From assembly GCA_913048525.1 (NCBI GenBank), contig CAJWWP010000001.1:47074-111073 (forward strand): 64,000 nt of DNA, given 5' to 3'. Made by a program: the position numbers and the translations under genes. How positions within the stretch are numbered: the first letter of the stretch is position 1; every line of letters starts with the position of its first letter. The notes under the pieces are model-generated. The model worked only from the letters and a program-made list of their open reading frames with translations. It ran no database searches and was not told the DNA's origin. Positions 11,171 to 61,726 of the stretch are shown here, one piece after another. This stretch comes from an uncultured Chloroflexota bacterium. Lineage in GTDB: Bacteria; Chloroflexota; Dehalococcoidia; Lucifugimonadales; UBA826.

Positions 11171-11337
11171 GTGCACTCCTTAAATAATTTGATCAATAGA
11201 TTTATTTCTCGTCATAATATGGAATGTTACATAGCGAATGCATCATGATCAATTTCACCCATTAATATTTCCTAAAAAATTATCGAAGTACCTTGTATTT
11301 GTGGTGATAACATCATCTCCAATTTATATTTGATCGA

Positions 11338-29987: not shown

Positions 29988-30064
29988 GTGAGAAAAAAGA
30001 TTTATAGTTTATCCGATTCCTAGAAACCGATCGATCGAATGCTTAATTATAGAAGGTGAGGAAT

Positions 30065-31666
30065 ATGCCAATTGATCACGACCGAGAGTACTGGAAGCCT
30101 GGAATGCCCTGGGACAAGGCTCTTGAAGATATCGAGTATGTTAAGGAACTTGCCAGCGAAATGGGAGGTTCGGATCGAATCGAACGCCAACACAGTGGGG
30201 GCCGATATACGGTCAGGGAAAGGATAGAAAAGATTCTAGACTCTGGTAGTTTTCTTGAAGCTGGACCAATGGTGGGAGCCGCCGAATTTGACGATGATGG
30301 CAATCTGAAAGAATTTACTCCCGGAGCCTACGTCATGGGGCTTGGAGAAATAGATGGCCGTCCAGTTGCAATTGGAGGTGATGATTTCACGATTTCGGGT
30401 GGTAGTCCCCACAATGTCAGGAAAAATTCTCGCCAATTCACACAACCACTGGCGATGCAATATGGCATTCCATATGTGCAGCTGGTTGAGGGTGTTGGGC
30501 ATAGTGCGAAAGCGGATGAGGCGGCAGGTCATATGGGACTTCCGGATGGATCACAGTGGCATGAAGGAGTGGAACTTTTAAAAAAAGTTCCTGTTGCTGC
30601 TGGAATAATGGGTTCGGTTGCAGGGGCTCCGGCAGCTTACGCTTTAATGTCTCACTTTACGGTTATGGTAAAGGAGCAATCCCAAATATTCCCCTCTGGA
30701 CCTCCTGTGGTTAGACGTGCGATTGGGGAAACTCTTGATAAAGAAGAACTTGGCGGATACAGGATGCATGTTCATGACAGTGGTCAGGTTGATAATGTTG
30801 CCGATACTGAAGAAGAGGCTTTTGAACAGATTAAAAAGTTTATATCCTACCTACCCAATACCACATCCGATGTCGCAGACCGCGTGGAAACTGGTGATTC
30901 TCCAGATAGGAGACCTGAAGAATTACTAAGCATTATTCCACCTAATCGAAAGCGTTCATATGACCCTCGTAAACTTATAAGTTTGGTTGTCGACAATGGT
31001 GATTTTTTTGAGATGAGGAGACATTGGGCAGGGGCTGTTATCACGGGATTTGCAAGACTGGATGGGTACAGCGTTGGTATCGTAGGTAGCGACCCAAGAT
31101 TTCTCGCAGGTGCTATGGACGGCTGGGCGGCTGAAAAATATACTCACTTTCTCGATCTCTGCGATGCCTTCAATTTGCCGGTTGTGGTATTTCTGGACAT
31201 GCCCGGGTTTATGTTGGGATCCCATGCGGAGAGAAAGGCCACTATGAGGAGGGGAGTGAGAGCGCTCATTGCTAGCGCAGAGGCCGAAATTCCCAAAGTA
31301 GAATTCAATGTAAGAAAGGCGTATGGAGTTGCTGCTGACGCAATACATAGTCTCGGACATCCCAATGGATTAAATCTTCGTTATGGCTGGCCCGCGGGAG
31401 AATGGGGTGGGATACCAATAGAAGGGGGTGTTGCTGCCGCTTACAGAAGGGAAATTGAATCTGCGGAAGATCCGGAAGCACACAGGGAGATGATTGAGAA
31501 TAGGTTACTAAGACTCAGATCCCCTTTTAGAGCTGCCTACAAAGGCGACGTGGTTGATCTAATAGACCCGAGAGATACTAGGCGGTTAGCATGTAAGTTT
31601 GTGAAGTTGGCCCAACCTATGCTGGCCAAACTTTCACAGAGGCCTAAGAGGGCTGTTAGGCCATAA
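30065..31666 (+). CDS. acyl-CoA carboxyltransferase (biotin-dependent carboxylase beta / 12S-type subunit)
   Basis: About 533 aa. RIERQHSGGRYTVRERIEKILDSGSFLE at the N-terminus and two crotonase-like halves (GGDDFTISGGS ... FLDMPGFMLG) are typical of the carboxyl_trans domain. The longest ORF starts at GTG 30056. Confidence 0.85.
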   Translation: MPIDHDREYWKPGMPWDKALEDIEYVKELASEMGGSDRIERQHSGGRYTVRERIEKILDSGSFLEAGPMVGAAEFDDDGNLKEFTPGAYVMGLGEIDGRPVAIGGDDFTISGGSPHNVRKNSRQFTQPLAMQYGIPYVQLVEGVGHSAKADEAAGHMGLPDGSQWHEGVELLKKVPVAAGIMGSVAGAPAAYALMSHFTVMVKEQSQIFPSGPPVVRRAIGETLDKEELGGYRMHVHDSGQVDNVADTEEEAFEQIKKFISYLPNTTSDVADRVETGDSPDRRPEELLSIIPPNRKRSYDPRKLISLVVDNGDFFEMRRHWAGAVITGFARLDGYSVGIVGSDPRFLAGAMDGWAAEKYTHFLDLCDAFNLPVVVFLDMPGFMLGSHAERKATMRRGVRALIASAEAEIPKVEFNVRKAYGVAADAIHSLGHPNGLNLRYGWPAGEWGGIPIEGGVAAAYRREIESAEDPEAHREMIENRLLRLRSPFRAAYKGDVVDLIDPRDTRRLACKFVKLAQPMLAKLSQRPKRAVRP

Positions 31667-32859
31667 TGGGGAAGATTCCTAAAGGAAACAGTCATCAACT
31701 TCCTCTTGAAGGGACAAGAGTTCTAGAGGTATCCGAGGGTGTTGCCGGTCCGTACTGTGGTAGGTATCTAGCATCGCTGGGTGCTGAAGTTGTTAAGATT
31801 GAGCGTCCTCCACTTGGCGACTGGACCAGAGAAGTGGGCCCATTTATTGAGGGTCTGCCTCCCGGGGATAATAGCGCTCTTAACTTATACAACAATCAAG
31901 GAAAGAAGTCCGTCCTGTTGGAATGGACATCCAACAACGGGTTTGAGAACCTCCAATCTTTAGTGCCGGGGTTCGATATTCTTATAGAAGATTGGGATTT
32001 AAATCTTAGGGATGATATTGGTGTCGAGCGTAGTAGATTCGTTGATTCCAATCCAGGACTTATAGAGATTTCAGTGACTCCGTTTGGGCTTTCTGGTCCG
32101 TATGCAAGATGGAAGTCAAGTCCACTTGTCCAGCTGGCTCTGGGCGGATATATGTATCTCACAGGTGAAAGGGGTAAGGAACCTCTGATGCTTCCTGGGA
32201 GACAGCCTGATTATTTGACCGGTTTGAATGCTAGTGCTGCAGTCCACATAGCGCTATGGGAGAGGGAAAGGAGCGGGTCTGGGCAATTCCTCGAGATGTC
32301 TATGTTGGAGACCCTTGCAACATTGCATCAGTTTACAATGGAAATGACTACCTTTGAGGGAGTTCTTCGGATGAGAAACGGGAATCAGTGGCAGAAGGAG
32401 AGCTCTTTTGCATCGTACGGAATAACTACTTTGCCTTGTAGTGACGGGTACATCTGTTTTGGTATTTCTACAGAAGATCAATGGGAGCGTCTATGCGCAA
32501 TGATAGGTAGGGAAGATCTAATAGATGACCCAAATTACGATACCAGAATAAAAAGAGCTGATAACTCGGAATATCTTGACGAACTTCTTACTGAATGGAT
32601 TTCGAATCGCACCCGGCGTGAAATCTTTGTGGAAACTTCAGAAATTTGGGGACTGCCAACTGCACCAATTCTCGATATGTCTGAAGTAGTAAAAGACGAG
32701 CAGTTCATCTACAGAAATATTTTCCACGACCAAGTGCTTGGTAAAGGGCAGACTGTCACATTCCCTAAATATCCATATATTGCTTCGGAGATGAAGCCTA
32801 GGATAGGAATGGCACCGCGTCTTGGTGAACATACTGAAGATGTGTTGAGGACTAAGTGA
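31666..32859 (+). CDS. family III (CaiB/BaiF) CoA-transferase, subunit/paralog A
   Basis: 397 aa. LGAEVVKIERPPLGDWTR motif. The start ATG overlaps the upstream stop (TAATG). Confidence 0.85.
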   Translation: MGKIPKGNSHQLPLEGTRVLEVSEGVAGPYCGRYLASLGAEVVKIERPPLGDWTREVGPFIEGLPPGDNSALNLYNNQGKKSVLLEWTSNNGFENLQSLVPGFDILIEDWDLNLRDDIGVERSRFVDSNPGLIEISVTPFGLSGPYARWKSSPLVQLALGGYMYLTGERGKEPLMLPGRQPDYLTGLNASAAVHIALWERERSGSGQFLEMSMLETLATLHQFTMEMTTFEGVLRMRNGNQWQKESSFASYGITTLPCSDGYICFGISTEDQWERLCAMIGREDLIDDPNYDTRIKRADNSEYLDELLTEWISNRTRREIFVETSEIWGLPTAPILDMSEVVKDEQFIYRNIFHDQVLGKGQTVTFPKYPYIASEMKPRIGMAPRLGEHTEDVLRTK

Positions 32860-34055
32860 ATATGGTTCAGGGCCTTGTTTCCTCAGGAAGCCTATCGAAT
32901 ATTCGTGTTCTTGACCTAACTCGAGTTTGGGCTGGTCCTTTGGCGACTAGAGTGATGGGTGACTTTGGTGCTGACATAATCAAGATAAGTGATCCTAGAG
33001 TACAACTTCTGAGTTCCAACGGTCTAAACCACAAACTTAACCGCAACAAAAGAAATATTGGGATCAGGCTGGATATAGAGGAAGGAAGAGAAATATTGCT
33101 TGGACTTGTAAGAAAGTCTGACGTAATAGTTGAGAACTTCCGGCCCCGAGTGATGAGAAATTTGAAGATAGATTATGAAGTTCTCAAAACTGTTAAACCA
33201 GATATTATTTTTGTGTCGATGCCTGGTTTTGGAGCGAATGGGCCTTATTCTGAGTACCCTGCGTTTGGAACGACAGCTGAGGCAGTAGCTGGTATTCCCT
33301 CCCTTATAGGCTACGGAGACGGAGTGCCAATATCTACCGGTATAGCTTATGGTGATCCTGTCTCGGGTCTGAATGCCATAACTTTAATAATGGCTGCTCT
33401 CCGAATGAGGAATAAGACAGGACACGGACAATTTATAGACATCGCATTGTCAGCAAGTCCACTGTGCAATATTGGCGAGTATGTTGCAGCATATTCGAGC
33501 TCAGAAAACATCACCAGTCCCTCCGGCAACAGGTCTATAGAATATTCTCCGCAAGGTGCTTTTCGATGCAGGGGAAGAGATCAATGGATTGGTATCAGTG
33601 TCTTTAATGACGACGAGTGGATGAACTTGAAAGACTTAGTTAGTGATCCCGATCTCAATAACATAGAAACGTTTAGCTTGGAACAAAGACAAGATAATGA
33701 GGAGATCATAGAAGGAGCAATAGCAAAATGGACGTCTAGGCTTGACGTATTTGAAGCCGTTTCTCTTCTTCAGGAAAATGGCGTCAGGGCTGGTACGGTC
33801 AGCAGTGGCGCTCAACTCTTGGAGGATCCTCACCTAAACGATCGGGATTTCTTTTTTGATCTTGAAGAGAAAGAATATGGGTGGAAAAGATATGATGGGA
33901 ATTCCATTCCCGGGAATAGGATTCCCAAGTCTCAATGGAGTCCAACCAACAATGTTGGTGTTAATAGCAAAGAAATACTAACCGATTTATTAGGGTATAC
34001 AGAATCTTTTTGCGAAGCCCTGGCCTCAAAGGAAGCGGTTTATTTTGAGGAGTGA
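32856..34055 (+). CDS. family III (CaiB/BaiF) CoA-transferase, subunit/paralog B
   Basis: 399 aa. FGADIIKISDP and the catalytic-Asp context IAYGDPVSGLNA. The GTG start overlaps the upstream TGA (GTGA); ATG 32862 is an alternative start. Confidence 0.85.
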   Translation: MNMVQGLVSSGSLSNIRVLDLTRVWAGPLATRVMGDFGADIIKISDPRVQLLSSNGLNHKLNRNKRNIGIRLDIEEGREILLGLVRKSDVIVENFRPRVMRNLKIDYEVLKTVKPDIIFVSMPGFGANGPYSEYPAFGTTAEAVAGIPSLIGYGDGVPISTGIAYGDPVSGLNAITLIMAALRMRNKTGHGQFIDIALSASPLCNIGEYVAAYSSSENITSPSGNRSIEYSPQGAFRCRGRDQWIGISVFNDDEWMNLKDLVSDPDLNNIETFSLEQRQDNEEIIEGAIAKWTSRLDVFEAVSLLQENGVRAGTVSSGAQLLEDPHLNDRDFFFDLEEKEYGWKRYDGNSIPGNRIPKSQWSPTNNVGVNSKEILTDLLGYTESFCEALASKEAVYFEE

Positions 34056-51216: not shown

Positions 51217-52587
51217 TCAGTGGCTGGCTGACTTGTGGGAAGGATGAATAGGCTTTTTGGCGAATAGAAAGGCTACGCTTCCTACGGCGCCCAAAATAGC
51301 CATTGATACAAATGCAGTTGTGTAGTCCTGATGTCGGTCGAAAAGTGTCCCAGCAAACACTGGGCCTATCATGGTCATTATCATCATTATAATGGCGGAT
51401 ATTCCCATGATTTTGCCAAATGACTTTCTTCCGAAATATTCGCCTCTCATGGCGGTTGTTATGGGGGCTCGTGCTCCAAACCCTGCTCCGTATATTATTG
51501 CAAAGAGTAGAGCTGTCCATACGGAACTGACAATAACAGCGAGGGCGACTCCAATTGCCTGAAGACATCCAAAACAAAACAGTGCATATCGTTTTGTTAC
51601 CCTGTCTCCTATAACCCCGCCAAAAAGTTGGGATAAACCACCTATACCCATAGATATACCCCACACCAAAGCCGCGATTTCGAGTGTTAGACCCTGATTC
51701 TTAAAAGCTAATATCAGGTGTACCATCATGGTGGAGGTCATCATAGCTGAGGCTCCGTGACCAATTGATATGTACCAGAATGCTTTTTCTCTGATTGCTT
51801 CAGTAATTGTGAAATCCTGATTGTTAGTCACAATATTGGCTGATTCAGCGGCTATGTTTTCCTTGTTTTTTATACCGTCTGGAACTTCTCCTATCTCTTC
51901 AGGAGTGTTTCTAATGGTTTTCCAAATTAGTATTGGCACGAACAGGAATATTAGAGAAATCAATACGGCTGTGAGGCGCCACCCGAGTATTTCGGGAAGC
52001 ATCAATAATGCTAATAGGGGAACAATAGCGAATGTTCCGACCGAAAATCCCACTCCTCCTATTGACATAGCTAGGCTTCTATTTCTATCGAACCAGTTGT
52101 TAATGATTACTGTCATTGGTATCCATGCCCCTAGGGTGGATCCCAGCATTATCACGAGATAGGCAAGATAAAATATTAGCGGGTCATTCCATCTGGAGTC
52201 TCCTGGTGTGAAAGGATTTGTTGCACTTAGTAATAGATACCCTATAACTCCGACAAAAGCTCCGGATATCGCTGTTTTTTTCCCCCCGAACCTGTCGATC
52301 AAGTAGCCCACAATTGGCGCGGCGATGCTTCCTTCTAGTTGTCCCAATGAAAATGCCCAGGATAATTGCCCTCTTGCCCATCCAAAATCACGTTCTAAAG
52401 AGTCAATCCAAAGCCCTGTTGCTCCAAATGTTGGGCCTGAGAGGATTGCATTTACAGCTAGAGCGGTAACTGCTATCCACCAACCGTAAAATATTTTGTT
52501 TGGGTGAGGTTTAGGAAACAAAGACGTCCGGCTTTCTTTAGAAAAAGAAGTTTGAGTAGATCTCGTGCGAGCCTGCCACTTCGTCAA
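51217..52587 (-). CDS. MFS transporter
   Basis: 456 aa, about 12 TM segments. Motif A GYLIDRFGGKK. The start is uncertain (TTG 52587, poor SD). Confidence 0.75.
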   Translation of the reverse strand: MTKWQARTRSTQTSFSKESRTSLFPKPHPNKIFYGWWIAVTALAVNAILSGPTFGATGLWIDSLERDFGWARGQLSWAFSLGQLEGSIAAPIVGYLIDRFGGKKTAISGAFVGVIGYLLLSATNPFTPGDSRWNDPLIFYLAYLVIMLGSTLGAWIPMTVIINNWFDRNRSLAMSIGGVGFSVGTFAIVPLLALLMLPEILGWRLTAVLISLIFLFVPILIWKTIRNTPEEIGEVPDGIKNKENIAAESANIVTNNQDFTITEAIREKAFWYISIGHGASAMMTSTMMVHLILAFKNQGLTLEIAALVWGISMGIGGLSQLFGGVIGDRVTKRYALFCFGCLQAIGVALAVIVSSVWTALLFAIIYGAGFGARAPITTAMRGEYFGRKSFGKIMGISAIIMMIMTMIGPVFAGTLFDRHQDYTTAFVSMAILGAVGSVAFLFAKKPIHPSHKSASH

Positions 52588-52655: not shown

Positions 52656-53918
52656 TTAGTCTCCCGTTGGTACCGCAGCTTCTTCTGAAATTTCTCCAAT
52701 GGGTTCCCCGGTCTTTGGACTAACCTCGAATGGACTGCGTAACTCTAGTTCATCCGCGATTTCTCGTACAGCTGGAATTACTTCTTCTCCCATCAGGCGA
52801 AGGCTTCTCATCTGATCATCGTGAGTCATGGCGCCGTCACCATCCCAGAAAAATACTGATCCTGGCCTTAGGTACTCCAACACGTGTCTTATTTTTGGAA
52901 TTACTGTTTTGGGAGTTCCCGAAATAATCGTGTAGTCTTCGACCTGCTCTTCAAAAGATCTAGAAAGTTGTCCGCCTCTGTTCGCTGTTGCAACATTGGC
53001 GGTTGGGAGTACTCTTCTCCGCGATGTTAATCCTGGAAGTTTCAACAAGGCAGGATTTGCAGTTCCTTCATTTCCAGCCAGAAATGGATTGCTTGGTCCT
53101 TGTACAAATTTCCTTGCGACTTCCTCTGCTAATTCCTCAGTTTCATCGACGTGAACCTTCCACAAATAGCCGAAGTTTTGGGACCCAGCCTCATATCCCT
53201 CTTCTTTGGCAGTGTCGTGGTACACCTGAAATGATTGGCGTGTTGGTTCTAATTGGGTGGCCAACATTATGTAAGGTATACGTTGCTTTGCAGCCCAGAC
53301 GATTGAGTCTCTGCTGACAACTCCTGGAAGCATAATTTGAGGGTGTGGCTTTTGGTAAGGGCGCATCCATGGATTTACGTACCTGTATTGGTAGTGTTTT
53401 CCTTCCCATCTAAATGGACCTGGTTCAGTCCAAGCTTTAATTATAAAATCGTGAGCTTCTTGGAATCTCTCCCAGTTATAAGCCGGAGGGGCGTTGTGAG
53501 AGACGCTCTCTCGACCAGTTCCTCGCACCCAACCAGAAACTAGACGTCCTTTAGATATCATATCGATCATCGCTAGCTGTTCGACGAGCCATAAAGGATC
53601 GTCCCATATCGGGAGAATGTTTCCAAGCAACACTATTTTGGCCTTTTTCGTTATACGGGCCAAAATAGAAGCTTCTACATTCATAGCTCCACCCATGCAG
53701 AATGGTGTGCTGTGATGCTCGTTAAGCATAAGTCCATCGAAGCCCATTTCTTCCGCATATACCTTTTCGTCCAAGTATCTGTTGTAGAGGGCAGATCCCA
53801 AAATTGGATCGTATATTTCGTTGCTTACGCTTAAGTCTTTTATCGGCAATCCCGTGGCACCAAAGTATCCCGAGTCAGGATCCTGGTAAGGTCTTTCAGT
53901 GAAGTGTCCGATGAACAT
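52656..53918 (-). CDS. luciferase-like flavin-dependent monooxygenase (LLM), long form
   Basis: 420 aa. GFDGLMLNEHHSTP ... IVLLGNILPIWDDP ... GRLVSGWVRGTG. GAGGAGG SD. Confidence 0.8.
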   Translation of the reverse strand: MFIGHFTERPYQDPDSGYFGATGLPIKDLSVSNEIYDPILGSALYNRYLDEKVYAEEMGFDGLMLNEHHSTPFCMGGAMNVEASILARITKKAKIVLLGNILPIWDDPLWLVEQLAMIDMISKGRLVSGWVRGTGRESVSHNAPPAYNWERFQEAHDFIIKAWTEPGPFRWEGKHYQYRYVNPWMRPYQKPHPQIMLPGVVSRDSIVWAAKQRIPYIMLATQLEPTRQSFQVYHDTAKEEGYEAGSQNFGYLWKVHVDETEELAEEVARKFVQGPSNPFLAGNEGTANPALLKLPGLTSRRRVLPTANVATANRGGQLSRSFEEQVEDYTIISGTPKTVIPKIRHVLEYLRPGSVFFWDGDGAMTHDDQMRSLRLMGEEVIPAVREIADELELRSPFEVSPKTGEPIGEISEEAAVPTGD

Positions 53919-53957: not shown

Positions 53958-54761
53958 TTATTTTGAATCTAGGAACGTTGTTATTATTTTGACAAATTCG
54001 CCTGGTTTTTCAATCTCAGGTCTATGACCGACATTTTCCATCACCTGCATTGTGGAACCGGGTATAGACTCTTGATATATTCGGCCGGCATCGATGGGAA
54101 CTATTTTGTCGTTTCCCCCCCAAACAATCAGAGTATTTAAATTCTTTAGCCTGTGTAGCAGATGCTTCAGACCTAGACTGTACATATAGGGTTTCCATCC
54201 TAGTTTGCACGATTGCTCTCTAGCTATTTCCCAAAGTTCGAGCATTTCAGGACTGGGTTCCTCAGGGCATATGAGATCGAATTCAGCACAGGAACTGGAA
54301 TCGTGTATGGCTTCTCTCAGGTAGTCGGGAGCCAGGTTAAGAAATATGTCATATATTTCTCCCTCTTCAGGTTTGACTCCTGTGGGAGCAACAAGGGCTA
54401 GCTTACGAAACTTGGAAGGATCCATAACAGCCATCTCAGCAGCTAGCCATCCCCCAAAAGAAAATCCTACAAGGTCTATCTCGTCTAAGCCCATATCATC
54501 AAGTGCTTCTAGATACCATCCTGCAAGATCCCGAACCTGCATCATCCAATCAATCCCCTTAGATTCGTCATAGCCTGGATGGCTAGGGGCGTAAACTTTT
54601 CGGGATGTCGACAAGGTTTCGTGATAGCTCATCCAACCTGGGAACCCTAGTTCTCCGTGTAGGATCAGTAATGGACTACCTTCACCGGCAGTACGCATCT
54701 GAATTGTTGCCCCTGCCACTTCCAACCTGGATTCTTTAAAAGACGCTTCGCTAACGGCCAA
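53958..54761 (-). CDS. alpha/beta-fold hydrolase (C-C hydrolase/esterase-like)
   Basis: 267 aa. HG oxyanion motif LLILHGELG, nucleophile elbow GFSFGGW, C-terminal His (NVGHRP). Confidence 0.8.
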   Translation of the reverse strand: MAVSEASFKESRLEVAGATIQMRTAGEGSPLLILHGELGFPGWMSYHETLSTSRKVYAPSHPGYDESKGIDWMMQVRDLAGWYLEALDDMGLDEIDLVGFSFGGWLAAEMAVMDPSKFRKLALVAPTGVKPEEGEIYDIFLNLAPDYLREAIHDSSSCAEFDLICPEEPSPEMLELWEIAREQSCKLGWKPYMYSLGLKHLLHRLKNLNTLIVWGGNDKIVPIDAGRIYQESIPGSTMQVMENVGHRPEIEKPGEFVKIITTFLDSK

Positions 54762-54940
54762 TGTTCCCTCACTCTTTCGGATACCAAATGTTTTCGCAAT
54801 CCTAGTGGTCTCTACGATCTATTTCAACTCATTCTTCACAGAAATTCACTCTAATAGATGCCAAATAGGTCCACAAGATGATATAAATCGCTTTATAACA
54901 CTTTATGGAAGCTGCACGTTAACACGATTGGAGGTGAATT

Positions 54941-56194
54941 TTGCAAGGAACCAGGTCCATTTCACAACCAGACGGCCCTCTTAAGGGAGTTAAAGTATTA
55001 GATTGGACGATTTGGCAATTTGGACCAGTTAGCACTTCAATGATGGGGGATATGGGTGCAGATGTCATAAAAATTGAGTCTCTCGACGGAGATCCGGGAA
55101 GAGGTCTGGCGAGGGCATCAAACCTGAAAATGGATCTTGGTGAAGGTAGGGTGGCGTACTTTGAGGCCTTGAATAGGAATAAGCGAAGTTTAGCTGTGAA
55201 CCTAAAAACTGAGGAAGGGTTAGAAGTTGTCCATGAGCTAGTAAAAGATGCAGATGTCTTTGTTCAGAATTTTCGTAGTGGAGTTGCAGAGAGGCTTGGA
55301 GTTGGCTATGACACGTTGTCGAAGATAAACCCGAAGTTAATTTACGGTTCGGCCAACGGTTATGGCCCAAATGGACCTGACGCTGTCCAGCCTTCGTTCG
55401 ATGGGTGTGGACAGGCCAGATCAGGATTGATGATGTCTGCAACGGAAGACTATCAAGAATATCCTACAAGGATCACTCAGGGGGTTTCTGATCAAATCGG
55501 TGGAATAATGCTTTGCCAGGGGATTTTGGCAGCACTTGTATCAAGGGGTATACGAGGCGTGGGACAAAAAGTCGAAACATCTCATTTGAGTGCCAATATG
55601 TGGCTCCAGGGTTTAGGAATTTCAATGAGTCTACTGCAGGGCGGTGTGAATTTCGCCTCATATAGTAGGGAAAGTCCAACAAATCCGTTATCAAATACCT
55701 ACAATGGTAGTGATGGCAAATCAATAGTGATGATGCATCTCCAACCTGATAGGTATTGGGCCCCTCTTATGAAAGAGATGGGACTTGAACAGTTTATTGA
55801 AGACGAAAGGTTTGTCGATATGTCGGCCAGAGCAGAAAATGCTACCGACATAGTTAAAATTCTTGACGAGAGGTTTGCGACAAAGACGGTTGCTGAGTGG
55901 GATAAGTTATTTCGAGATTCTGAGACTGATTTTATCTACGCATTGGTTCAAAGTATTGAAGAACTCTCAGACGATATTCAGGTTCAGTCCAATAATTACA
56001 TAACGCATTTTGATCATCCCGTTTTGGGTGATGTTCAGATGTGTAACCATCCAAACATATATAGCGACACCCCGGCGGGCATCTGGAAGGAGGCCCCAGA
56101 GGTAGGGCAAGACACAGAGGAAATTCTTATAGAAAATTTGGGATACGATTGGGATGATATAGGCCGGCTTCAATCTGCCGGCGCAATCCTGTAA
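54941..56194 (+). CDS. family III (CaiB/BaiF/Frc-like) CoA-transferase
   Basis: 417 aa. MGADVIKIESLDGDPGR, catalytic-Asp context GVSDQIGG. TTG start after GGAGGTGA. Confidence 0.85.
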   Translation: MQGTRSISQPDGPLKGVKVLDWTIWQFGPVSTSMMGDMGADVIKIESLDGDPGRGLARASNLKMDLGEGRVAYFEALNRNKRSLAVNLKTEEGLEVVHELVKDADVFVQNFRSGVAERLGVGYDTLSKINPKLIYGSANGYGPNGPDAVQPSFDGCGQARSGLMMSATEDYQEYPTRITQGVSDQIGGIMLCQGILAALVSRGIRGVGQKVETSHLSANMWLQGLGISMSLLQGGVNFASYSRESPTNPLSNTYNGSDGKSIVMMHLQPDRYWAPLMKEMGLEQFIEDERFVDMSARAENATDIVKILDERFATKTVAEWDKLFRDSETDFIYALVQSIEELSDDIQVQSNNYITHFDHPVLGDVQMCNHPNIYSDTPAGIWKEAPEVGQDTEEILIENLGYDWDDIGRLQSAGAIL

Positions 56195-56238
56195 AAATAT
56201 ATTGCCTTATTAAAGGCATTCAATAGAGAGGAGACAGT

Positions 56239-57903
56239 ATGGCAGAAATAGATGGGGGACACCTTTTCGCGAAGGCTCTAAAGAAGGAAGGTGTGGAGTA
56301 TATATTCACCTTGAACGGAGGTCATATATACAACCTGTATGAAGGTTGTGCAGATGAAGGTATTAAGATAGTTGACTTTCGACATGAGCAGGTAGCAGCT
56401 CACGCAGCTGAAGGTTGGGCTAAAGTTACTGGCAAACCAGGTGTTGCCATTGTAACCGCTGGGCCTGGGGTAACGGATGCCGTAACTGGTATCGCGAATG
56501 CTTACCAAGCACCAAGCCCTATGATTATGATTGGAGGCAACGCAGGTATTGCAGACCATCTACGTGGTGGATTACAGGACTTCGATAGTGCGACTTTTCT
56601 AAAACCTGTAACCAAATTCTCTGAACAGGTGAAAAGGGTAGAACGTATACCCGAATATGTCGCGAACGCTTTTAGAGCAGCAACAAGCGGTGTACCTGGC
56701 CCAGCTTATCTGGAAATCCCTATCGATATCGTAGGTGGCGTGACTGATGAAGAAAATGTTAGATATCCTGACAGATATAGAACCGAGGCAAGAGCTTTCG
56801 GTGACCCAGAATATATACAAAAGGTCGTCGATATTTTAAAGAATGCTGAGCGCCCCATGATCCTTGCGGGATCAGATGTCTGGTGGTGTGATGCTGCTGA
56901 AGAGCTTAGGAGATTTGTTGAAACTATAGATTCTCCAGTTTTCCTTAATGCCATGGGTAGAGGAAGTCTTCCTTCAAATCATCCAAATTTAGGGAGTTTG
57001 GGAAGGAGATATGGCTTGGTCAAGTCTGACGCTGTGGTCCTCATTGGAACTCCAATAGATTTCAGATTGAGCTATGGTGAAGACAGATTGTTCCCCCAGA
57101 ACCCGAAGCTTATAGAAATCATGATGGATGGAAACAAAATTGGCCAGAATAGAGATGTTGATGCGGGTGTGGTAGGAGACGTTGGTGCGGTTTTGGGTCA
57201 GGTTCTAGATGGATTAGAGGCATCTGGATACAAATCCAAGGGAAAGTCTTGGGTCGAAGAAGTTATGACCGAGGACAAGGCATTAAAGGCTGCTGATGAG
57301 GAACTACTGAATAGTGACTCTAACCCAATACATCCCATGAGACTTTGCAAAGAACTAAGAGATGTACTGGATGAAGATGCCACTGTTATAGGTGATGGAG
57401 GTGACATCGTTACTTTCGCTGCCAGAGTACTTAACATAAATAAACCTGGACACTGGCTTGACCCCGGACAGTTTGGATGTCTTGGAGCTGGTAGTGGGTT
57501 TGCTGCTGCTGCTCAGCTAGCCAGACCCGGGAAACAGGTCTGCATAGTCTATGGAGATGGTGGATTTGGACTGACCGGATTTGATGTTGAGTCATATGTG
57601 AGATTTGATTTGCCGATTGTTTCCATAGTTGGTAATAACGGGGCCTGGAACCAGACCACTCAAGGTGTGGTTAAAAGAGGGGGAAGAGCTCTTGGGACCT
57701 ATCTTTCACAAGACACCGATTATGCCAAGATAATGGAAGGTATGGGAGGTCACTCAGAGCGGGTGTCTGAGCCAGACCAGATAAAACCGGCTCTTGAGAG
57801 AGCCTTTGAGTCTGGTAAACCGGCGTTGGTGGACGTTGTAATAGACCAAAATGTCTCCTATGGAACTATGGGAGGAAGGTCAAGAGAGCAGCGTCAGTAC
57901 TAG
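56239..57903 (+). CDS. ThDP-dependent enzyme, oxalyl-CoA decarboxylase / 2-hydroxyacyl-CoA lyase-like
   Basis: 554 aa. FRHEQVAAHAAEGWA (catalytic Glu), GGLQDFDSATFLKPVTKFS aligns by eye to the HACL1/Oxc G.(F/L)Q(E/D) region, and the ThDP motif is GDGGFGLT...GNNGAWN. GAGAGGAGA SD. Confidence 0.75.
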   Translation: MAEIDGGHLFAKALKKEGVEYIFTLNGGHIYNLYEGCADEGIKIVDFRHEQVAAHAAEGWAKVTGKPGVAIVTAGPGVTDAVTGIANAYQAPSPMIMIGGNAGIADHLRGGLQDFDSATFLKPVTKFSEQVKRVERIPEYVANAFRAATSGVPGPAYLEIPIDIVGGVTDEENVRYPDRYRTEARAFGDPEYIQKVVDILKNAERPMILAGSDVWWCDAAEELRRFVETIDSPVFLNAMGRGSLPSNHPNLGSLGRRYGLVKSDAVVLIGTPIDFRLSYGEDRLFPQNPKLIEIMMDGNKIGQNRDVDAGVVGDVGAVLGQVLDGLEASGYKSKGKSWVEEVMTEDKALKAADEELLNSDSNPIHPMRLCKELRDVLDEDATVIGDGGDIVTFAARVLNINKPGHWLDPGQFGCLGAGSGFAAAAQLARPGKQVCIVYGDGGFGLTGFDVESYVRFDLPIVSIVGNNGAWNQTTQGVVKRGGRALGTYLSQDTDYAKIMEGMGGHSERVSEPDQIKPALERAFESGKPALVDVVIDQNVSYGTMGGRSREQRQY

Positions 57904-57915
57904 TAATAAATATTA

Positions 57916-57940
57916 GGGCCCCTGTACTTAAAGGGGGCCC
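57916..57940 (+). terminator. GC-rich hairpin (GGGCCCC-N11-GGGGCCC) between the ThDP enzyme and hot-dog genes
   Basis: The perfect 7-bp stem was read directly (57916-57922 / 57934-57940). No U-tract follows, so it is an attenuator or mRNA-stability element rather than a canonical intrinsic terminator. Confidence 0.25.
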
Positions 57941-57951
57941 GTTAACAAAAG

Positions 57952-58830
57952 ATGGGGGTCCGTAATATGACAAACAGAGAACATCACTCTGAGGAAGCTT
58001 TTGTAGGAAAGGAACTGGAACCTCGAGCGTTTGAGGTATCTACAAATCATGTACAAGATTACTTTGAAGGTCTTAAATTGGACTCCGATTGGTATGAAGA
58101 TAGCGGGGAAAGTAGTGACAAGTTACTTCCATCAATGATTCTTGTAGACGCTGAGTCAATGGCTGGAGCCAGTTTCCGTAATAATTTTGGCAACCTATGG
58201 ATGCGTCAAGAGCTCGACTTTCATGCTCCTTTAACTTCGCGAACAGAGATGAGAGTTGAATCTCGAGTCCAAGATATATACGAGTGGAGAAACAGGACGA
58301 TCGTTCTTCAAGAATCCACCATCTATGGGGAAAATGACACTATTCTCGGTGTGATGCGCCATCATCAGAGTTATTTACTCGACCAGAATTCAGGCAGAGT
58401 GGCGCTGAGAAAGCCTTCTGATAAAGAAGGGGTTCGGAAATTCAATGTCCCAAAAGGTGATCTATTGGATCCAGTCACGAGAGAAATTGATTTAGAGATG
58501 TGTGGAACATTCTTTCATGGGAACAAGCACTATCACACAAATCGAGAGGCATCTCAGGAGCTAGGATTTGAGGAGGTGGTCGTTGGGGGAAAAATGACTA
58601 TTTCCTACATCGGGGATATGTTGGATCGAAGCTTTGGCCAGAAATGGTTTGAAGGTGGCAAGCTGGATGTTAAATTCACCAATATTGTTTGGCCAGGTGA
58701 CAGGGTAACAGCGAGAGGGGTACTTACAGATGAAAGATCTGTAAGCGACGATATTGCAGAGGCTCGGGTGTGGATGGAAAAAGACGACGGTACTGTGGTT
58801 ATAGTTGGCAACGCATATATACCGGACTAG
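57952..58830 (+). CDS. double hot-dog fold (MaoC-like) protein with a degenerate hydratase-2 motif
   Basis: 292 aa. The C-terminal half FHGNKHYHTNREASQELGFEEVVVGGKMT...KFTNIVWPGDRV aligns by eye to MaoC SGDxNPIHxDxExA...GF...HG...(R/K)F..PV..GD, with Asp replaced by Asn. ATG 57967 is an alternative start. Confidence 0.5.
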   Translation: MGVRNMTNREHHSEEAFVGKELEPRAFEVSTNHVQDYFEGLKLDSDWYEDSGESSDKLLPSMILVDAESMAGASFRNNFGNLWMRQELDFHAPLTSRTEMRVESRVQDIYEWRNRTIVLQESTIYGENDTILGVMRHHQSYLLDQNSGRVALRKPSDKEGVRKFNVPKGDLLDPVTREIDLEMCGTFFHGNKHYHTNREASQELGFEEVVVGGKMTISYIGDMLDRSFGQKWFEGGKLDVKFTNIVWPGDRVTARGVLTDERSVSDDIAEARVWMEKDDGTVVIVGNAYIPD

Positions 58831-58869
58831 TGGTAACAGCCTGTAGCTTTTTCTTAGTACCGAAACACA

Positions 58870-60489
58870 TTGAGTGAGTCTTTTGATGTGGTCGTTATAG
58901 GTGGCGGCCCATCTGGAAGTTGTGCCGCTTCCATGGCGGCCAAAGCTGGTTTGTCCGTTGTGCTTCTCGAACGCCTCAAATTTCCTAGAGACCACATAGG
59001 TGAATCCTTGCTTCCGGCCAGTATGCCTATACTTAGAGAGTTAGGTGTTGAGGCGGAAATAGCTGCTGCGGGATTTCCTGTCAAACATGGGGCCACTATG
59101 GTGTGGGGGAGTGGATCTGAACCTTGGACGTGGAGCTTCAGTGAAACGAACCAAGAATACACTAAAGCATATCAGGTTAACCGCCCCGAATTCGATACTA
59201 TTCTTCTCAATAAAGCGCGAGTTGTAGGCGTCGATGTTAGAGAGGAGAATCAAGTAATTGAAGTGATTTTTCTCGATGAAAGAGCCGTGGGAGTTCGTTG
59301 CAATAACCGACTAGGAACTGAGCTTTTTATAGAGTCCAGAATGGTTATAGACTGCAGTGGTCAATCATCCTTGATTTCCAGGGCTAAGAATCTTCGCCAA
59401 TGGGATGATAGCTTTCAAAATCTCGCAATATACGGGTATTTTGAAAACTCGACTCCCCTGCCTAAACCTAACGAGAACAATATTTTTATTGAATCTTTTT
59501 CAGAGGGTTGGATTTGGAATATACCTTTAAAGGAAAACATTGCTAGCGTTGGAATTGTGCTAGATTCAAAAAAAGCATCACAGGAATTACAATCCAGGGA
59601 TGTTGAAGATTACTTTCAGGTGAATCTGTCATATGCGAAAGAATCTAGTCGGATGCTTCAATCAGCAAAGCTTCTCAAGCCTCCCCAAGTCGTAAAGGAC
59701 TGGTCATACACATCCAGCCAAATCGCCGGTCTATCTTGGGTCCTAGCAGGTGATGCGGCTTGTTTTATAGACCCATTGTTTTCATCAGGCGTACATATGG
59801 CTCTTATGTCGGGAGTTCTAGCATCAGCTTACGCGGTCACGGTACTATCAGACCCAGATATGGAGATAGCTACCGCCCGTGTGTATGAAGATATGATCAG
59901 AAGGGAGTATTCCTTGTTCAGGGAGTTGGCCCAACTTTTCTATCAGACAAATAGATCTGTTGACTCTTACTTTTGGGAGGCGAGAAAAATATTGGGCCGA
60001 GGTGGGATTTCTACTGGGCGGGAGGCCTTTATCAAAGCTGTATCTGGACAATCTGTAAGGGGTTATGAAAGGGCTGTTTTGGAAAAGGGGGAATTACCAG
60101 AATCGTTCAAATATGCTCTTGAATCGCAACAGAATGATAGGGATTCTCGACGACGGGAGTTGGAAATGTACTTTAATGACTGGAATCATCTGGTCCCTTA
60201 CTTACATGAAGATACCTATGTTGTTAGAAAGCCTGTTTTATCTGCAGGTAGGTTCGAGTGGGGACTCGTGCTCCACTCACCTGAGAGACAGGATGATACC
60301 GATTGTAGTTCGTTTGTTGCATTGTTATTAGATTTGATCGACGGTGAAGCGAATATGCGTTTAATATCTGAGCGAGTCAGAGATAAAGTGAATAGTCCGG
60401 ACAAAACAGTTATCAACGAGTATTTGAAGAAAACTGTAGAAATACTCTATGTAGAAGGGGCTATAAGTAAGTTACAGCTAGTGAAATAG
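58870..60489 (+). CDS. FAD-dependent halogenase-like protein (flavin-dependent halogenase family signature)
   Basis: 539 aa, TTG start. VVIGGGPSGS (GxGxxG), LKFPRDHIGESLLP, GWIWNIPL (WxWxIP, nt 59509-59526), LAGDAACFIDPLFSSGVHMA. Confidence 0.65.
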   Translation: MSESFDVVVIGGGPSGSCAASMAAKAGLSVVLLERLKFPRDHIGESLLPASMPILRELGVEAEIAAAGFPVKHGATMVWGSGSEPWTWSFSETNQEYTKAYQVNRPEFDTILLNKARVVGVDVREENQVIEVIFLDERAVGVRCNNRLGTELFIESRMVIDCSGQSSLISRAKNLRQWDDSFQNLAIYGYFENSTPLPKPNENNIFIESFSEGWIWNIPLKENIASVGIVLDSKKASQELQSRDVEDYFQVNLSYAKESSRMLQSAKLLKPPQVVKDWSYTSSQIAGLSWVLAGDAACFIDPLFSSGVHMALMSGVLASAYAVTVLSDPDMEIATARVYEDMIRREYSLFRELAQLFYQTNRSVDSYFWEARKILGRGGISTGREAFIKAVSGQSVRGYERAVLEKGELPESFKYALESQQNDRDSRRRELEMYFNDWNHLVPYLHEDTYVVRKPVLSAGRFEWGLVLHSPERQDDTDCSSFVALLLDLIDGEANMRLISERVRDKVNSPDKTVINEYLKKTVEILYVEGAISKLQLVK

Positions 60490-60505: not shown

Positions 60506-61726
60506 CTAGCTTTTTGTGGATTGCGATCTAACCATCTGGGGCCATAGCAGACAAACACCTATTGTCAAAAGTGAGCCCATGATCCCATTGAATACCAGAG
60601 CAACTTGGACTCCGGCTAATTCCGTTATTGCCCCGGAGAGTAATAGTCCCAAGGGCAATCCACCCACAGCCAGTTGCCTAAGTCCCATTATTCGCCCCCT
60701 AAGGTTTGAAGGGGTTAGGTTAAGAATCATAGTTGAAATCATGATTACACACATAGATGTTCCAATTCCTGCAGAAAAAAATATTGGCAGACTTACAAAA
60801 GTACTAGGAGCAAGACTTACTAGAGCTGTCGACACGTGCCATATAAAAGAGCTACAAACTATTAGCACCCCTCCTCTAATTCGAATTAAACCAGAACTGA
60901 GGCTAATGGAACCAATTGCGGCTCCTAACGAATAGGTTCCTAGAATTATCCCCAAGCTCTCCGAACTGGTCTGAAACACTTGCTTCACTACAACTGCAGC
61001 AAGTGAAAAGTAGAGCGGGTACGCGGTCAAATTAATTATTACTGCCATTATTAATAGACCAGCTAGTGCGGGGACAGTTCGTACATGTTTCAATGCTTCA
61101 ACCAAAGATGAAATCACAGGCCGCTTGTTATCGATATGAGTAGTGGTTACATGCAGGGGATTTTGTCCTATCCTGAATGAAAGCATGAATGATAGTAGAT
61201 AAAATATAATCACAACCGAATAACTCATTGTCATATCGGTCCAACTTAGTAAGTAACCACCGGCAATGGGACTGACTATTTGTGTTACATCACCTCCCGC
61301 TCTCTCCAATGCAAGACCATTCCGAATGCTTTTTTCGGGAACTATTTCGGGCATGATTGACTGGCGAACTACCATTTCGGCTGTTTTTGAAATGCCGAGA
61401 AATCCAGCCAATATTAGAATTTCCCACTTATCAAGATTGTCAAAAAATATTAATGTCAGACCGATACTTGAGTTGAGGAGGAATGAAGCCCTGACCAGGA
61501 TTATTAGAACTCTTTTTTCGAGGCGATCTACAACTACGCCTATCAGAGGGGCGAACAAAGTCGCTGTGAATCGAAGTGCGCCATATATTCCCAATATCAA
61601 GGGCGAGTTAGTTTTCTCAAGTATGAACCAGGATAGGATTACCATCTCCATATATTCAGCCCAGTGAAGAGTGGCAACCGATGTCCAAAGGTACCTATAG
61701 TCTTTGTACTTTAGGCTCTCTAACAT
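60506..61726 (-). CDS. MFS transporter
   Basis: 406 aa, about 12 TM segments. Motif A GVVVDRLEKRV. Confidence 0.8.
   Translation of the reverse strand: MLESLKYKDYRYLWTSVATLHWAEYMEMVILSWFILEKTNSPLILGIYGALRFTATLFAPLIGVVVDRLEKRVLIILVRASFLLNSSIGLTLIFFDNLDKWEILILAGFLGISKTAEMVVRQSIMPEIVPEKSIRNGLALERAGGDVTQIVSPIAGGYLLSWTDMTMSYSVVIIFYLLSFMLSFRIGQNPLHVTTTHIDNKRPVISSLVEALKHVRTVPALAGLLIMAVIINLTAYPLYFSLAAVVVKQVFQTSSESLGIILGTYSLGAAIGSISLSSGLIRIRGGVLIVCSSFIWHVSTALVSLAPSTFVSLPIFFSAGIGTSMCVIMISTMILNLTPSNLRGRIMGLRQLAVGGLPLGLLLSGAITELAGVQVALVFNGIMGSLLTIGVCLLWPQMVRSQSTKS

Follow-up and report, generated by a model that had tools for sequence, protein, structure and literature searches.

The window analysed here is a 64,000-nucleotide (nt) stretch of DNA from an uncultured Chloroflexota bacterium (Dehalococcoidia; Lucifugimonadales; UBA826), contig CAJWWP010000001.1 of assembly GCA_913048525.1, positions 47,074 to 111,073 of the forward strand. 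Positions 54941-60489 of the window carry four genes, which encode a family III CoA-transferase (CoAT1), a thiamine diphosphate (ThDP) enzyme, a double hot-dog protein, and a halogenase-like flavoprotein. We believe that this array is probably a clade-specific juxtaposition of two independent conserved modules. Module A comprises the first three genes, together with a second CoA-transferase gene (CoAT2) in most SAR202 relatives, and is likely a CoA-thioester pathway that releases formyl-CoA. Module B is a widely distributed separate unit of an alpha/beta hydrolase (ABH), a luciferase-like flavin-dependent oxidoreductase (LLM), and the halogenase-like flavoprotein. We are highly confident of the composite structure of the array because a halogenase homologue lies near the hot-dog gene in 2 of 64 Chloroflexota loci, whereas an LLM gene lies near the halogenase gene in 29 of 41 evaluable metagenome loci. 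In the window's clade, module A is set between parts of module B, and the halogenase-like gene thus stands 39 nt behind the hot-dog gene. The genes concerned are as follows.

54941-56194, + strand: family III CoA-transferase CoAT1, 417 amino acids (aa), TTG start, GGAGG Shine-Dalgarno (SD) sequence
56239-57903, + strand: ThDP enzyme of the oxalyl-CoA decarboxylase (Oxc)/2-hydroxyacyl-CoA lyase (HACL)/benzaldehyde lyase (BAL) branch, 554 aa, GAGGAG SD sequence
57952-58830, + strand: double hot-dog protein of predicted hydratase-2/MaoC fold, 292 aa
58870-60489, + strand: halogenase-like flavoprotein, 539 aa, TTG start
53958-54761, - strand: ABH, divergent from CoAT1, 267 aa, Pfam Abhydrolase_1 and Abhydrolase_6
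52656-53918, - strand: LLM, 420 aa, Pfam Bac_luciferase
60506-61726, - strand: convergent transporter, Pfam MFS_3/MFS_1, the 3' boundary of the array

The open reading frame (ORF) listing gave four co-directional plus-strand ORFs at these coordinates with gaps of 44, 48, and 39 nt, as an initial annotation of the window had described. The divergent hydrolase and the convergent MFS gene that it placed on the two sides were both recovered by Pfam.

Conservation of module A

Contigs carrying hot-dog homologues of 93, 74, 69, 56, and 52% identity were looked up, and the hot-dog family alignment was scanned over one genome per species. The scan gave 80 loci, 64 of them from Chloroflexota, onto which the window proteins were mapped. 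The results showed that a ThDP orthologue (78-98% identity) lies upstream of the hot-dog gene and co-directional with it in 52 of the 64 Chloroflexota loci, or in 50 of the 59 with enough upstream DNA. Where a ThDP orthologue precedes the hot-dog gene, CoAT1 is mostly present too; its orthologues upstream of the ThDP gene in SAR202 are 62-74% identical to the window protein. The order CoAT1-ThDP-CoAT2-hot dog was found in 35 of the 64 loci. CoAT2 was absent from 13, including the window's clade and a clade with approximately 70% hot-dog identity. The initial annotation had singled out the CoA-transferase/ThDP pair, a family III enzyme beside one of Oxc/HACL type. This pair is real and deeply conserved, and the hot-dog gene that the annotation placed in the same set is a genuine conserved member of the unit. 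In most genomes, module A stands beside rsmI, metG, and a polyprenyl synthase gene, and this housekeeping neighbourhood points to vertical inheritance. The genes that recur around module A in SAR202 include no oxlT-like gene.

The hot-dog family has at least 480 homologues, and those with a named source belong to the SAR202 cluster or to Dehalococcoidia; none was found in cultured plasmids or chromids. In metagenome-assembled genomes (MAGs) of Rhodospirillaceae, two genes for family III CoA-transferases (one of them Frc-like, 377 bits) flank that for the hot-dog protein. A short-chain dehydrogenase/reductase (SDR) gene and an MFS gene also occur there, but no ThDP gene. The most basic association is therefore that of the hot-dog protein with a CoA-transferase, to which SAR202 adds a CoA-transferase/ThDP pair.

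The initial annotation regarded all four genes as one conserved unit and named their co-localisation in relatives as the test. The first three genes passed it; the fourth did not beyond the window's clade. A halogenase homologue was found within 10 kb of the hot-dog gene in only 2 of the 64 Chloroflexota loci (L015 and L016), both of the window's clade, and an LLM orthologue was found near the hot-dog gene in the same two loci. They are GTDB species representatives, namely the SAR202 single amplified genome AC-647-P02 (L015) and MAG OSU_TB06 (L016), and they carry the whole 11-gene neighbourhood at 85-99% protein identity. The halogenase-like gene adjoins module A solely in L007, L010, L011, L015, and L016; these five related loci, with 88-93% hot-dog identity, keep the four-gene order. 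In the clade with approximately 70% hot-dog identity, the three-gene module is followed, right after the hot-dog gene, by a gene on the opposite strand. A divergent gene upstream of module A in that clade was considered as the same hydrolase and rejected, as it encodes an unrelated leucine-rich-repeat protein.

In some SAR202 genomes, a 71-aa HicB-like antitoxin ORF is inserted between the CoAT1 and ThDP genes (L004, 4651-4866, + strand; also L005).

The halogenase-like flavoprotein and module B

The flavoprotein matched Pfam Trp_halogenase with 158 bits and the NCBIfam CmlS model with 287 bits against a cut-off of 900. Among solved structures, CndH (3e1t) gave 307 bits and 41% identity over approximately 400 residues. 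The motif GxGxxG (residues 11-16), K72, and W214-x-W216-x-I218-P219 were invariant in 20 homologues of 47-92% identity (alignment A2), and K72 aligns with a residue that we take, counting from the alignment, to be the catalytic Lys76 of CndH. The AlphaFold2 (AF2) model (pLDDT 80) was matched by Foldseek to FasV, CndH, CmlS, RadH, PltA, and Bmp2. The alignment with CmlS covers 552 columns at a whole-chain TMq of 0.70 and may include the C-terminal domain. This domain (approximately residues 395-539) is family-specific, and the C-terminal 145 aa had no Pfam match. All halogenase motifs are present. By sequence criteria, the protein is a putative flavin-dependent halogenase, and its surroundings are catabolic, not biosynthetic.

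A metagenome scan centred on the halogenase gave 80 loci, of which 41 had at least 1.3 kb on both sides and were evaluable. An LLM orthologue (55-90% identity) was located within 3 kb of the halogenase gene in 29 of these 41 loci: directly upstream and co-directional in 22 (mostly at 40-480 nt), downstream and convergent in 5, and upstream and divergent in 2. In six of the 12 loci without an LLM orthologue, the halogenases are all distant ones, of 39% identity or less. None of the 80 loci contained a hot-dog homologue or a ThDP homologue above 31% identity. ABH homologues (31-71% identity) stand beside the LLM gene in many of them, usually in the order ABH-LLM-Hal, where Hal is the halogenase-like gene. 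In L012-L014, halogenase homologues of 52-57% identity adjoin LLM orthologues (87-90%) and ABH homologues (60-65%), and the CoA-transferase, ThDP, and hot-dog genes are absent. As the LLM gene recurs in these loci and the hot-dog and ThDP genes do not, we assign the halogenase-like gene to one unit with the LLM and hydrolase genes, which in the window lie immediately upstream on the other strand.

The LLM of the window met no NCBIfam cut-off, and its best PDB match was luciferase alpha (71 bits). Its homologues number more than 4000, and the top 120 are all at least 79% identical. The best PDB matches of the ABH were HsaD and BphD (approximately 52 bits), and it resembles meta-cleavage-product hydrolases. 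The LLM is unusually conserved, with 55-90% identity between loci whose halogenases are 37-57% identical. The ABH-LLM-Hal trio (L012-L014, L095-L174) occurs on marine contigs, and its presence in soil and freshwater is presumed from sample identifiers only. No flavin reductase was found among the conserved neighbours of the trio.

In 11 halogenase-centred loci (including L106 and L116), a protein of approximately 309 aa of the "Cyclase" family PF04199 is encoded 10-196 nt downstream of the halogenase gene; other loci have an SDR or MOSC-domain protein there. PF04199 is the kynurenine-formamidase/isatin-hydrolase family, a possible hint that module B might perform heteroaromatic (indole/isatin-type) chemistry. 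Distant family III CoA-transferase paralogues stand near the trio in 9 of 37 long loci. If a genome of 3.5 Mb is assumed to have approximately 50 such paralogues, chance adjacency is roughly estimated at near 20%, and these genes were not counted as evidence.

The ThDP enzyme

The ThDP enzyme consists of three TPP domains (Pfam TPP_enzyme_N, M, and C). Its top NCBIfam match was NF004516, named "acetolactate synthase" (545 bits against a cut-off of 587), followed by the actinobacterial HACL model NF058623 (375 against 600), the Oxc models NF006721 (339 against 557) and TIGR03254 (323 against 739), and the acetohydroxyacid synthase (AHAS) model TIGR00118 (338 against 538). The enzyme was placed by bit-score ranking against NCBIfam and PDB; the PDB ranking was as follows.

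CfhHACL/S (8vzk): 336 bits
Other HACL/S: 293-300 bits
M. extorquens Oxc (MeOxc): 277 bits
BAL: 262 bits
E. coli and O. formigenes Oxc: 241-252 bits
AlsS: 214-239 bits
AHAS: 173 bits or less

CfhHACL/S, the nearest structure, is an active HACL/S from a Chloroflexi bacterium (PMC11271303). Residues were mapped by alignment to ApbHACL/S, as identified in the same paper (PMC11271303). The ThDP-activating Glu is kept (E50, ApbHACL/S E54), as are the active-site Gln (Q113, residue 117) and the first acyl-CoA-binding Arg (R256, ApbHACL/S R260). Across 51 sequences (the window enzyme and 50 SAR202 orthologues of 78-98% identity), H29, E50, L112-Q113, R256, R396, W470-N471, and the C-terminal tail were kept in all or all but one; Q113 was invariant, and E50 was found in 50, the exception being an ambiguous X. 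The core of the tail, Y541...M-G-G-R-S-R-x-x-R-Q-Y554, was also invariant. In composition it is similar to the CoA-contacting lid of HACL/S (R-K-x-Q...W), and its sequence is different. Such an Arg-rich tail would be expected of the CoA lid in HACL/Oxc (PMC11271303). The active site of O. formigenes Oxc contains Y120-E121, Y483, S553, and R555 (PMC10192776). F116-Q117 of ApbHACL/S is replaced by L112-Q113; if this pair is equivalent to Y120-E121, as we assumed from the ApbHACL/S alignment, the latter is probably not kept in the window enzyme.

Cultured homologues of 42-47% identity were found in Streptomyces, Nonomuraea, Caballeronia, Cupriavidus metallidurans CH34, and Phyllobacterium. Their profile of NCBIfam scores is that of the window enzyme, and they share H29, E50, Q113, and R256 with it. 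In three clusters with frc and oxlT, such a homologue is the sole ThDP gene, as detected in Cupriavidus and as annotated in Streptomyces and Phyllobacterium.

Phyllobacterium, L175, 7920-9674: ThDP gene in frc/oxlT cluster
Streptomyces, L176, 6977-8659: ThDP gene in frc/oxlT cluster
Cupriavidus metallidurans CH34, L177, 8001-9626: ThDP gene in frc/oxlT cluster

These clusters contain frc, an ADP-forming acyl-CoA synthetase gene, oxlT or an OFA-family MFS gene, sucCD-like genes, and a panE2-like reductase gene, and by position the ThDP homologues occupy the place of oxc. The C-terminal tail of the SAR202 enzyme differs from that of these homologues.

Because of the PDB ranking, the kept residues, and the homologues in frc/oxlT clusters, we regard the ThDP enzyme as a predicted sister subfamily of Oxc/HACL and not as an AHAS, which upholds the original assignment to the Oxc/HACL type. 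On the same grounds, the case that it cleaves the C1-C2 bond of an acyl-CoA to give formyl-CoA is, in our judgement, evenly balanced.

The three cluster genes in L175-L177 scored 219-272 bits with the Oxc models (cut-offs 557-739) and are annotated merely as "thiamine pyrophosphate-binding protein". This suggests that they may encode a second, unrecognised type of oxalyl-CoA decarboxylase, of the same subfamily as the SAR202 enzyme.

The double hot-dog protein

The hot-dog protein matched a Pfam MaoC-like domain in its C-terminal half only (35 bits against a cut-off of 27), and a sequence search against PDB gave no match. Its AF2 model had a pLDDT of 81. The best Foldseek matches were the hydratase 2 of MFE-2, Rv3389c, the itaconyl-CoA hydratase PaIch, the mesaconyl-CoA hydratase MeaC, and Chloroflexus 4e3e, with a probability of 1.00 and TM scores of 0.65-0.69 to 1s9c, 1pn2, 8khg, and 8hgn; the structural matches were 12-18% identical. 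The model indicates a hydratase-2 double hot-dog fold.

The motif FHGNKHYH occupies residues 188-195, in which H195 is kept and N191 takes the place of the hydratase-2 Asp. The GNKHYH replacement noticed in the initial annotation was thus confirmed. The protein does not fit the hydratase-2 motif G-D-x-N-P-[LIV]-H; the motif of its family is G-N-K-[NH]-Y-H, with a one-residue deletion. In an alignment of 22 diverse members (A1), H195 and Y194 were invariant, and the Asp position held Asn in 19 and Asp in 3. More than 70 further columns were invariant, including H137-H138-Q139-S140, R85-Q86, D222, D225, D239, and K241. The protein had been called degenerate. This description does not hold because the variant motif, in the form G-N-K-N-Y-H, is near-invariant in the family, as are many other residues. 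The data indicate a distinct, presumably active subfamily under purifying selection.

The CoA-transferases

CoAT1 matched Pfam PF02515 (CoA_transf_3) over its full length (336 bits, profile positions 1-366 of 366). Its D184 aligns with the Asp of frc (GAQIGDSGTG), SUGCT, and 10uh, and we take this residue to be the counterpart of Frc D169, which presumably forms the acyl-aspartyl anhydride. CoAT1 is thus predicted to be a complete family III enzyme with D184 as its catalytic Asp. The best PDB matches were the 409-aa "formyl-CoA transferase" 10uh (199 bits) and SUGCT (163 bits). The best NCBIfam matches were the Frc models NF003809 (213 bits against a cut-off of 442) and TIGR03253 (210 against 504), both to the N-terminal half only, and identity between CoAT1 and frc from the oxalate clusters of Streptomyces and Phyllobacterium is 29%. 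The original term "Frc-like" is correct as a resemblance, Frc being the nearest named family, but not as membership of that family. For CoAT2, no named equivalog was found; among named families, the Frc and YfdE models gave the top scores for CoAT1 and CoAT2.

In approximately 10 SAR202 species loci, the strand opposite the hot-dog gene encodes, 2-3 kb downstream of it, a protein of 812 aa with two fused CoA_transf_3 domains (L004, 11215-13653, - strand; L005, L028, L029, L040, L042-L044, L050, L052, and L056). Its architecture recalls what we take to be that of the DMSP CoA-transferase/lyase DddD.

Proposed pathway and alternative explanations

From the gene set, the folds, and the catalytic residues of module A described above, we infer an order of steps, a recycling of formyl-CoA, and a substrate. 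Module A probably handles a small carboxylic acid entirely as CoA thioesters. The family III CoA-transferase would load the acid onto CoA, and the hydratase-2-type hot-dog protein would add water to the acyl-CoA or remove it. The Oxc/HACL-type ThDP enzyme would then cut the C1-C2 bond next to the thioester and give formyl-CoA with a carbonyl compound, or with CO2 if the substrate is oxalyl-CoA-like. The CoA-transferase would reuse formyl-CoA as the CoA donor, as in frc-oxc, and no ATP-dependent ligase would then be needed; none is encoded among the conserved genes of the module A operon. Our best guess for the substrate is a hydrated unsaturated dicarboxylate that needs two CoA-transferases. 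The unsaturated acid would be activated at one carboxyl and hydrated, which would place the hydroxyl beta to the thioester but alpha to the carboxyl that is still free. CoAT2 would shift the CoA onto this second carboxyl before cleavage by the ThDP enzyme. We consider it unlikely that this substrate scheme is right in its specifics.

Several observations weigh against a formyl-CoA-releasing pathway kept apart from the halogenase. None of the four array proteins reached an NCBIfam equivalog cut-off. In the ThDP enzyme, the second acyl-CoA-binding Arg (ApbHACL/S R400) is A395, next to an invariant R396. The ADP-binding Args of HACL/S (ApbHACL/S R156 and R276) are lost to V152 and P272; across the 51 sequences, the former position is V or I and the latter is invariant. 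The active-site loop G-[IF]-P of HACL/S is G-G-H29, and I475-G476 of ApbHACL/S is W470-N471. The G-G-H29 loop and W470-N471 resemble what we take to be the BAL sequence. In BAL, H29 and Q113 are catalytic. Because of the lost ADP-binding Args, A395, and the BAL-like loop, the ThDP substrate might be something other than a CoA ester of the known types. In the hot-dog protein, N191 replaces the hydratase Asp. Hydratase-2 makes 3-hydroxyacyl-CoA and HACL-type cleavage needs 2-hydroxyacyl-CoA; a shift of CoA between carboxyls, or another role of the hot-dog protein, is therefore needed, and CoAT2, the enzyme for such a shift, is lost in the window's clade. Finally, the halogenase-like gene lies 39 nt after the hot-dog gene without a predicted terminator, in an order kept in five related loci. 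It is probably co-transcribed with the hot-dog gene, and a functional link between the halogenase and module A may exist within the window's clade.

The main rival is that module A carries out plain oxalate degradation of the frc-oxc or E. coli yfdW-yfdU-yfdE type. CoAT1 would form oxalyl-CoA from oxalate and formyl-CoA, the ThDP enzyme would decarboxylate it, CoAT2 would prime the cycle, and the hot-dog protein would be an accessory, for example a thioesterase. The closest cultured ThDP homologues (42-47%) are indeed the sole ThDP genes of clusters with frc, an acyl-CoA synthetase gene, and oxlT, the Frc and YfdE models are the top named families for CoAT1 and CoAT2, and an OFA-related MFS gene lies 2.4 kb away in the window. 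Yet oxalate breakdown needs no hydratase, and the hot-dog gene is the most tightly linked of all, occurring in Rhodospirillaceae with CoA-transferases but without a ThDP enzyme. CoAT1 is 29% identical to those frc genes and scores under half of the Frc cut-offs, and the ThDP enzyme reaches 323-339 bits where the Oxc models require 557-739. It also has L112-Q113 at the assumed Y120-E121 position of Oxc (F116-Q117 in ApbHACL/S) and a tail unlike that of the oxalate-cluster homologues. No oxlT-like gene recurs near module A in the SAR202 loci. Overall, we rate oxalate degradation as somewhat unlikely.

The initial annotation proposed a single pathway for all four genes, with halogenation of a CoA-tethered substrate or with removal of C1 units from halogenated or branched 2-substituted acyl-CoAs. 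The co-directional genes, the 39-nt gap without a predicted terminator, and the order kept in five loci would fit this, as would a flavoprotein with all halogenase motifs and a CmlS-like overall architecture; an acyl thioester has been proposed as the native substrate of CmlS. The adjacency, however, belongs to one clade (2 of 64 Chloroflexota species loci), and the clade with approximately 70% hot-dog identity has an opposite-strand gene right after the hot-dog gene. In the 80 halogenase loci, the LLM gene is the recurrent neighbour and neither a hot-dog homologue nor a ThDP homologue above 31% was found, the halogenase start lacks an SD sequence, and no halide-related gene, dehalogenase, or flavin reductase was found among the ORFs scanned at 30-64 kb. 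Nothing was found in support of a halogenated substrate for the CoA/ThDP module, and a single four-gene pathway is very improbable. Least likely by far is that the ThDP enzyme is an acetolactate or acetohydroxyacid synthase with incidental CoA-transferase neighbours. NF004516 is its best NCBIfam match, and TIGR00118 scores the same 338 bits as the Oxc model, but both scores are under cut-off (587 and 538). Solved AHAS and AlsS reach 155-239 bits, below the 277-336 bits of HACL/S and Oxc, a CoA-binding Arg of HACL type (R256) stands where AHAS presumably has its GMHG motif, the CoA-transferase link holds in 50 of the 59 evaluable species loci, and the cultured relatives sit in frc/oxlT clusters.

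Returning to the two-module explanation, its furthest extension is that module A is an undescribed, ATP-free, one-carbon-cleaving pathway of most SAR202, in which (di)carboxylic acids of refractory marine organic matter, either unsaturated or hydroxylated, would be loaded onto CoA, hydrated by a new subfamily of hot-dog proteins, and cut by a new ThDP subfamily related to Oxc/HACL, with recycling of formyl-CoA, that the trio is a widespread catabolic system with halogenase-type flavin chemistry, and that both possibly form one divergent regulon in the window's clade. We regard this full version as quite improbable.

Comparison with known systems and significance

The CoA-transferase/ThDP logic of module A is of the known frc-oxc/HACL kind. 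As in frc-oxc, a family III CoA-transferase gene lies directly upstream of that for an Oxc/HACL-branch ThDP enzyme, and, as in E. coli yfdXWUVE, the operon of most SAR202 has a second CoA-transferase gene (cf. yfdE). Unlike frc-oxc, module A misses the Frc and Oxc cut-offs, has 29% identity to genuine frc, lacks the ADP-binding Args, has L112-Q113 at the position assumed to match Oxc Y120-E121, includes the double hot-dog gene as an integral part, and has no oxlT-like recurrent neighbour. The HACL/S enzymes (CfhHACL/S 8vzk, ApbHACL/S 8vza-f, and AcHICL/S 7pt1) provide the top structures (293-336 bits) and share E50, Q113, and the R260 equivalent with the window enzyme, whose conserved basic C-terminal tail is similar in composition to their CoA lid. 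They differ from the window enzyme by its lost ADP site (V152, P272), G-G-H29, W470-N471, and NCBIfam HACL score (375 against 600).

A hydratase-2 double hot dog with one or two family III CoA-transferases is also found in the Ict/Ich itaconate route and in the 3-hydroxypropionate bi-cycle (mesaconyl-CoA hydratase and mesaconyl-CoA C1-C4 CoA-transferase). PaIch, MeaC, and Chloroflexus 4e3e are among the best structural matches, and the phylum Chloroflexota is shared. Unlike these C4/C5 dicarboxylate routes, module A has a hot-dog protein of 12-18% identity with Asn for Asp and a one-residue deletion, and would use a ThDP enzyme for C-C cleavage instead of an HpcH/CitE-type lyase. The flavoprotein resembles the "variant B" halogenases CndH, CmlS, and PltA in GxGxxG, WxWxIP, the catalytic Lys, and 41% identity to CndH. 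It is unlike them in its partners, the LLM and the hydrolase, in the C-terminal 145 residues without a Pfam family, and in that no carrier protein, NRPS/PKS, or flavin reductase was found nearby among the ORFs scanned.

What appears to be new is a ThDP subfamily without the ADP site and with His29 and a SAR202-specific tail, and an obligatory double hot dog with the Asn motif, together with a second transferase, spread over most SAR202 species sampled. We found neither module described in the literature on SAR202 with halogenase or Oxc, on HACL with CoA-transferase and MaoC, or on halogenase with LLM. The SAR202 group is abundant in deep-ocean waters, and its members are believed to oxidise dissolved organic matter of the recalcitrant kind. 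To our knowledge, almost no substrates have been assigned to their expanded CoA-transferase and LLM families. Module A is a concrete, testable entry point, being present in most SAR202 species in a housekeeping neighbourhood with a ThDP enzyme of 78-98% identity, and it predicts the release of formate or formyl-CoA from a defined class of CoA esters. In Streptomyces, Cupriavidus, and Phyllobacterium, the ThDP subfamily also appears to take the place of Oxc within oxalate clusters. The over-reading of the array is corrected by taking the halogenase out of the module A pathway. It is paired with the LLM across marine, soil, and freshwater metagenomes (habitats from sample identifiers), and this pair merits separate study.

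Start signals and intergenic DNA

Strong SD sites had been reported for the array. This is true of CoAT1 (GGAGG) and the ThDP gene (GAGGAG) but not of the halogenase-like gene, for which no purine-rich SD sequence was found within 15 nt of the TTG at 58870. The hot-dog gene probably starts at the second ATG, at 57967, which would give 287 aa, because most of its homologues begin there; GGGGG lies 7 nt upstream of this ATG. The promoter/terminator scan placed no terminator-like site between the array genes on the + strand, and the sites that it returned were no commoner than in shuffled sequence. Such counts cannot decide the operon question, so co-transcription of the four genes is only plausible.

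54762-54940: divergent intergenic region, 179 nt, between ABH-LLM-MFS (- strand) and CoAT-ThDP-hot dog-Hal (+ strand)

This region contains one promoter-like match (54827-54799, - strand) from a scan no richer than shuffles, and it is a possible shared control region of both divergent arms. At permissive thresholds, Rfam gave no RNA family in the 50-64 kb part of the window, and a riboswitch or other RNA element was rejected. Between the ThDP stop and the hot-dog start there is a GC-rich inverted repeat at 57917-57942 (GGGCCCC...GGGGGCCC) without a T tract. It was dropped as a hairpin feature, its folding energy being no better than that of shuffles (z = -1.2).

Other genes in the window

The 30-64 kb part of the window is a typical SAR202 catabolic island, with several LLM oxidoreductases, six SDRs, further family III CoA-transferases, a carboxyltransferase, an acyl-CoA dehydrogenase, metallo-beta-lactamases, and amidases. 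ORFs of at least 150 aa were covered over 30-50 kb; over 51-64 kb, those of at least 80 aa were listed and ten were scanned. No PKS/NRPS or flavin-reductase domain was matched among the larger ORFs scanned, where a carrier protein of 80-100 aa in 30-50 kb would have escaped, and no halide-related gene or dehalogenase was matched. The convergent MFS gene at 60506-61726 is syntenic solely inside the window's clade. The second transporter gene is the following.

51217-52587, - strand: MFS transporter related to oxalate/formate antiporters and monocarboxylate transporters, 68 nt downstream of the LLM gene

Its NCBIfam scores were all sub-cut-off (L-lactate MFS SfMCT, 113 bits; OFA TIGR00890, 74; OxlT, 58). 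In L013, L097, and L099, the ABH-LLM-Hal genes have an orthologue of this transporter gene (61-63% identity) nearby. It was rejected as an OxlT equivalent, since its identity to OxlT of Phyllobacterium is only 21% and its orthologues accompany module B.

A second ThDP enzyme is encoded at 9509-11176 (- strand), where the adjoining genes specify a gamma-glutamyltransferase and an enolase of galactonate-dehydratase-like type. Benzoylformate decarboxylase is the nearest family of this enzyme (NF005485, 319 bits, below the cut-off of 493), and its identity to the ThDP enzyme of the array is 25%. Two tandem family III CoA-transferase genes (31666-32859 and 32856-34055, + strand, 4-nt overlap) directly follow the carboxyltransferase gene (30056-31666, + strand). 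They form another CoA-dependent module in the window and illustrate the expansion of CoA-transferase paralogues in SAR202.

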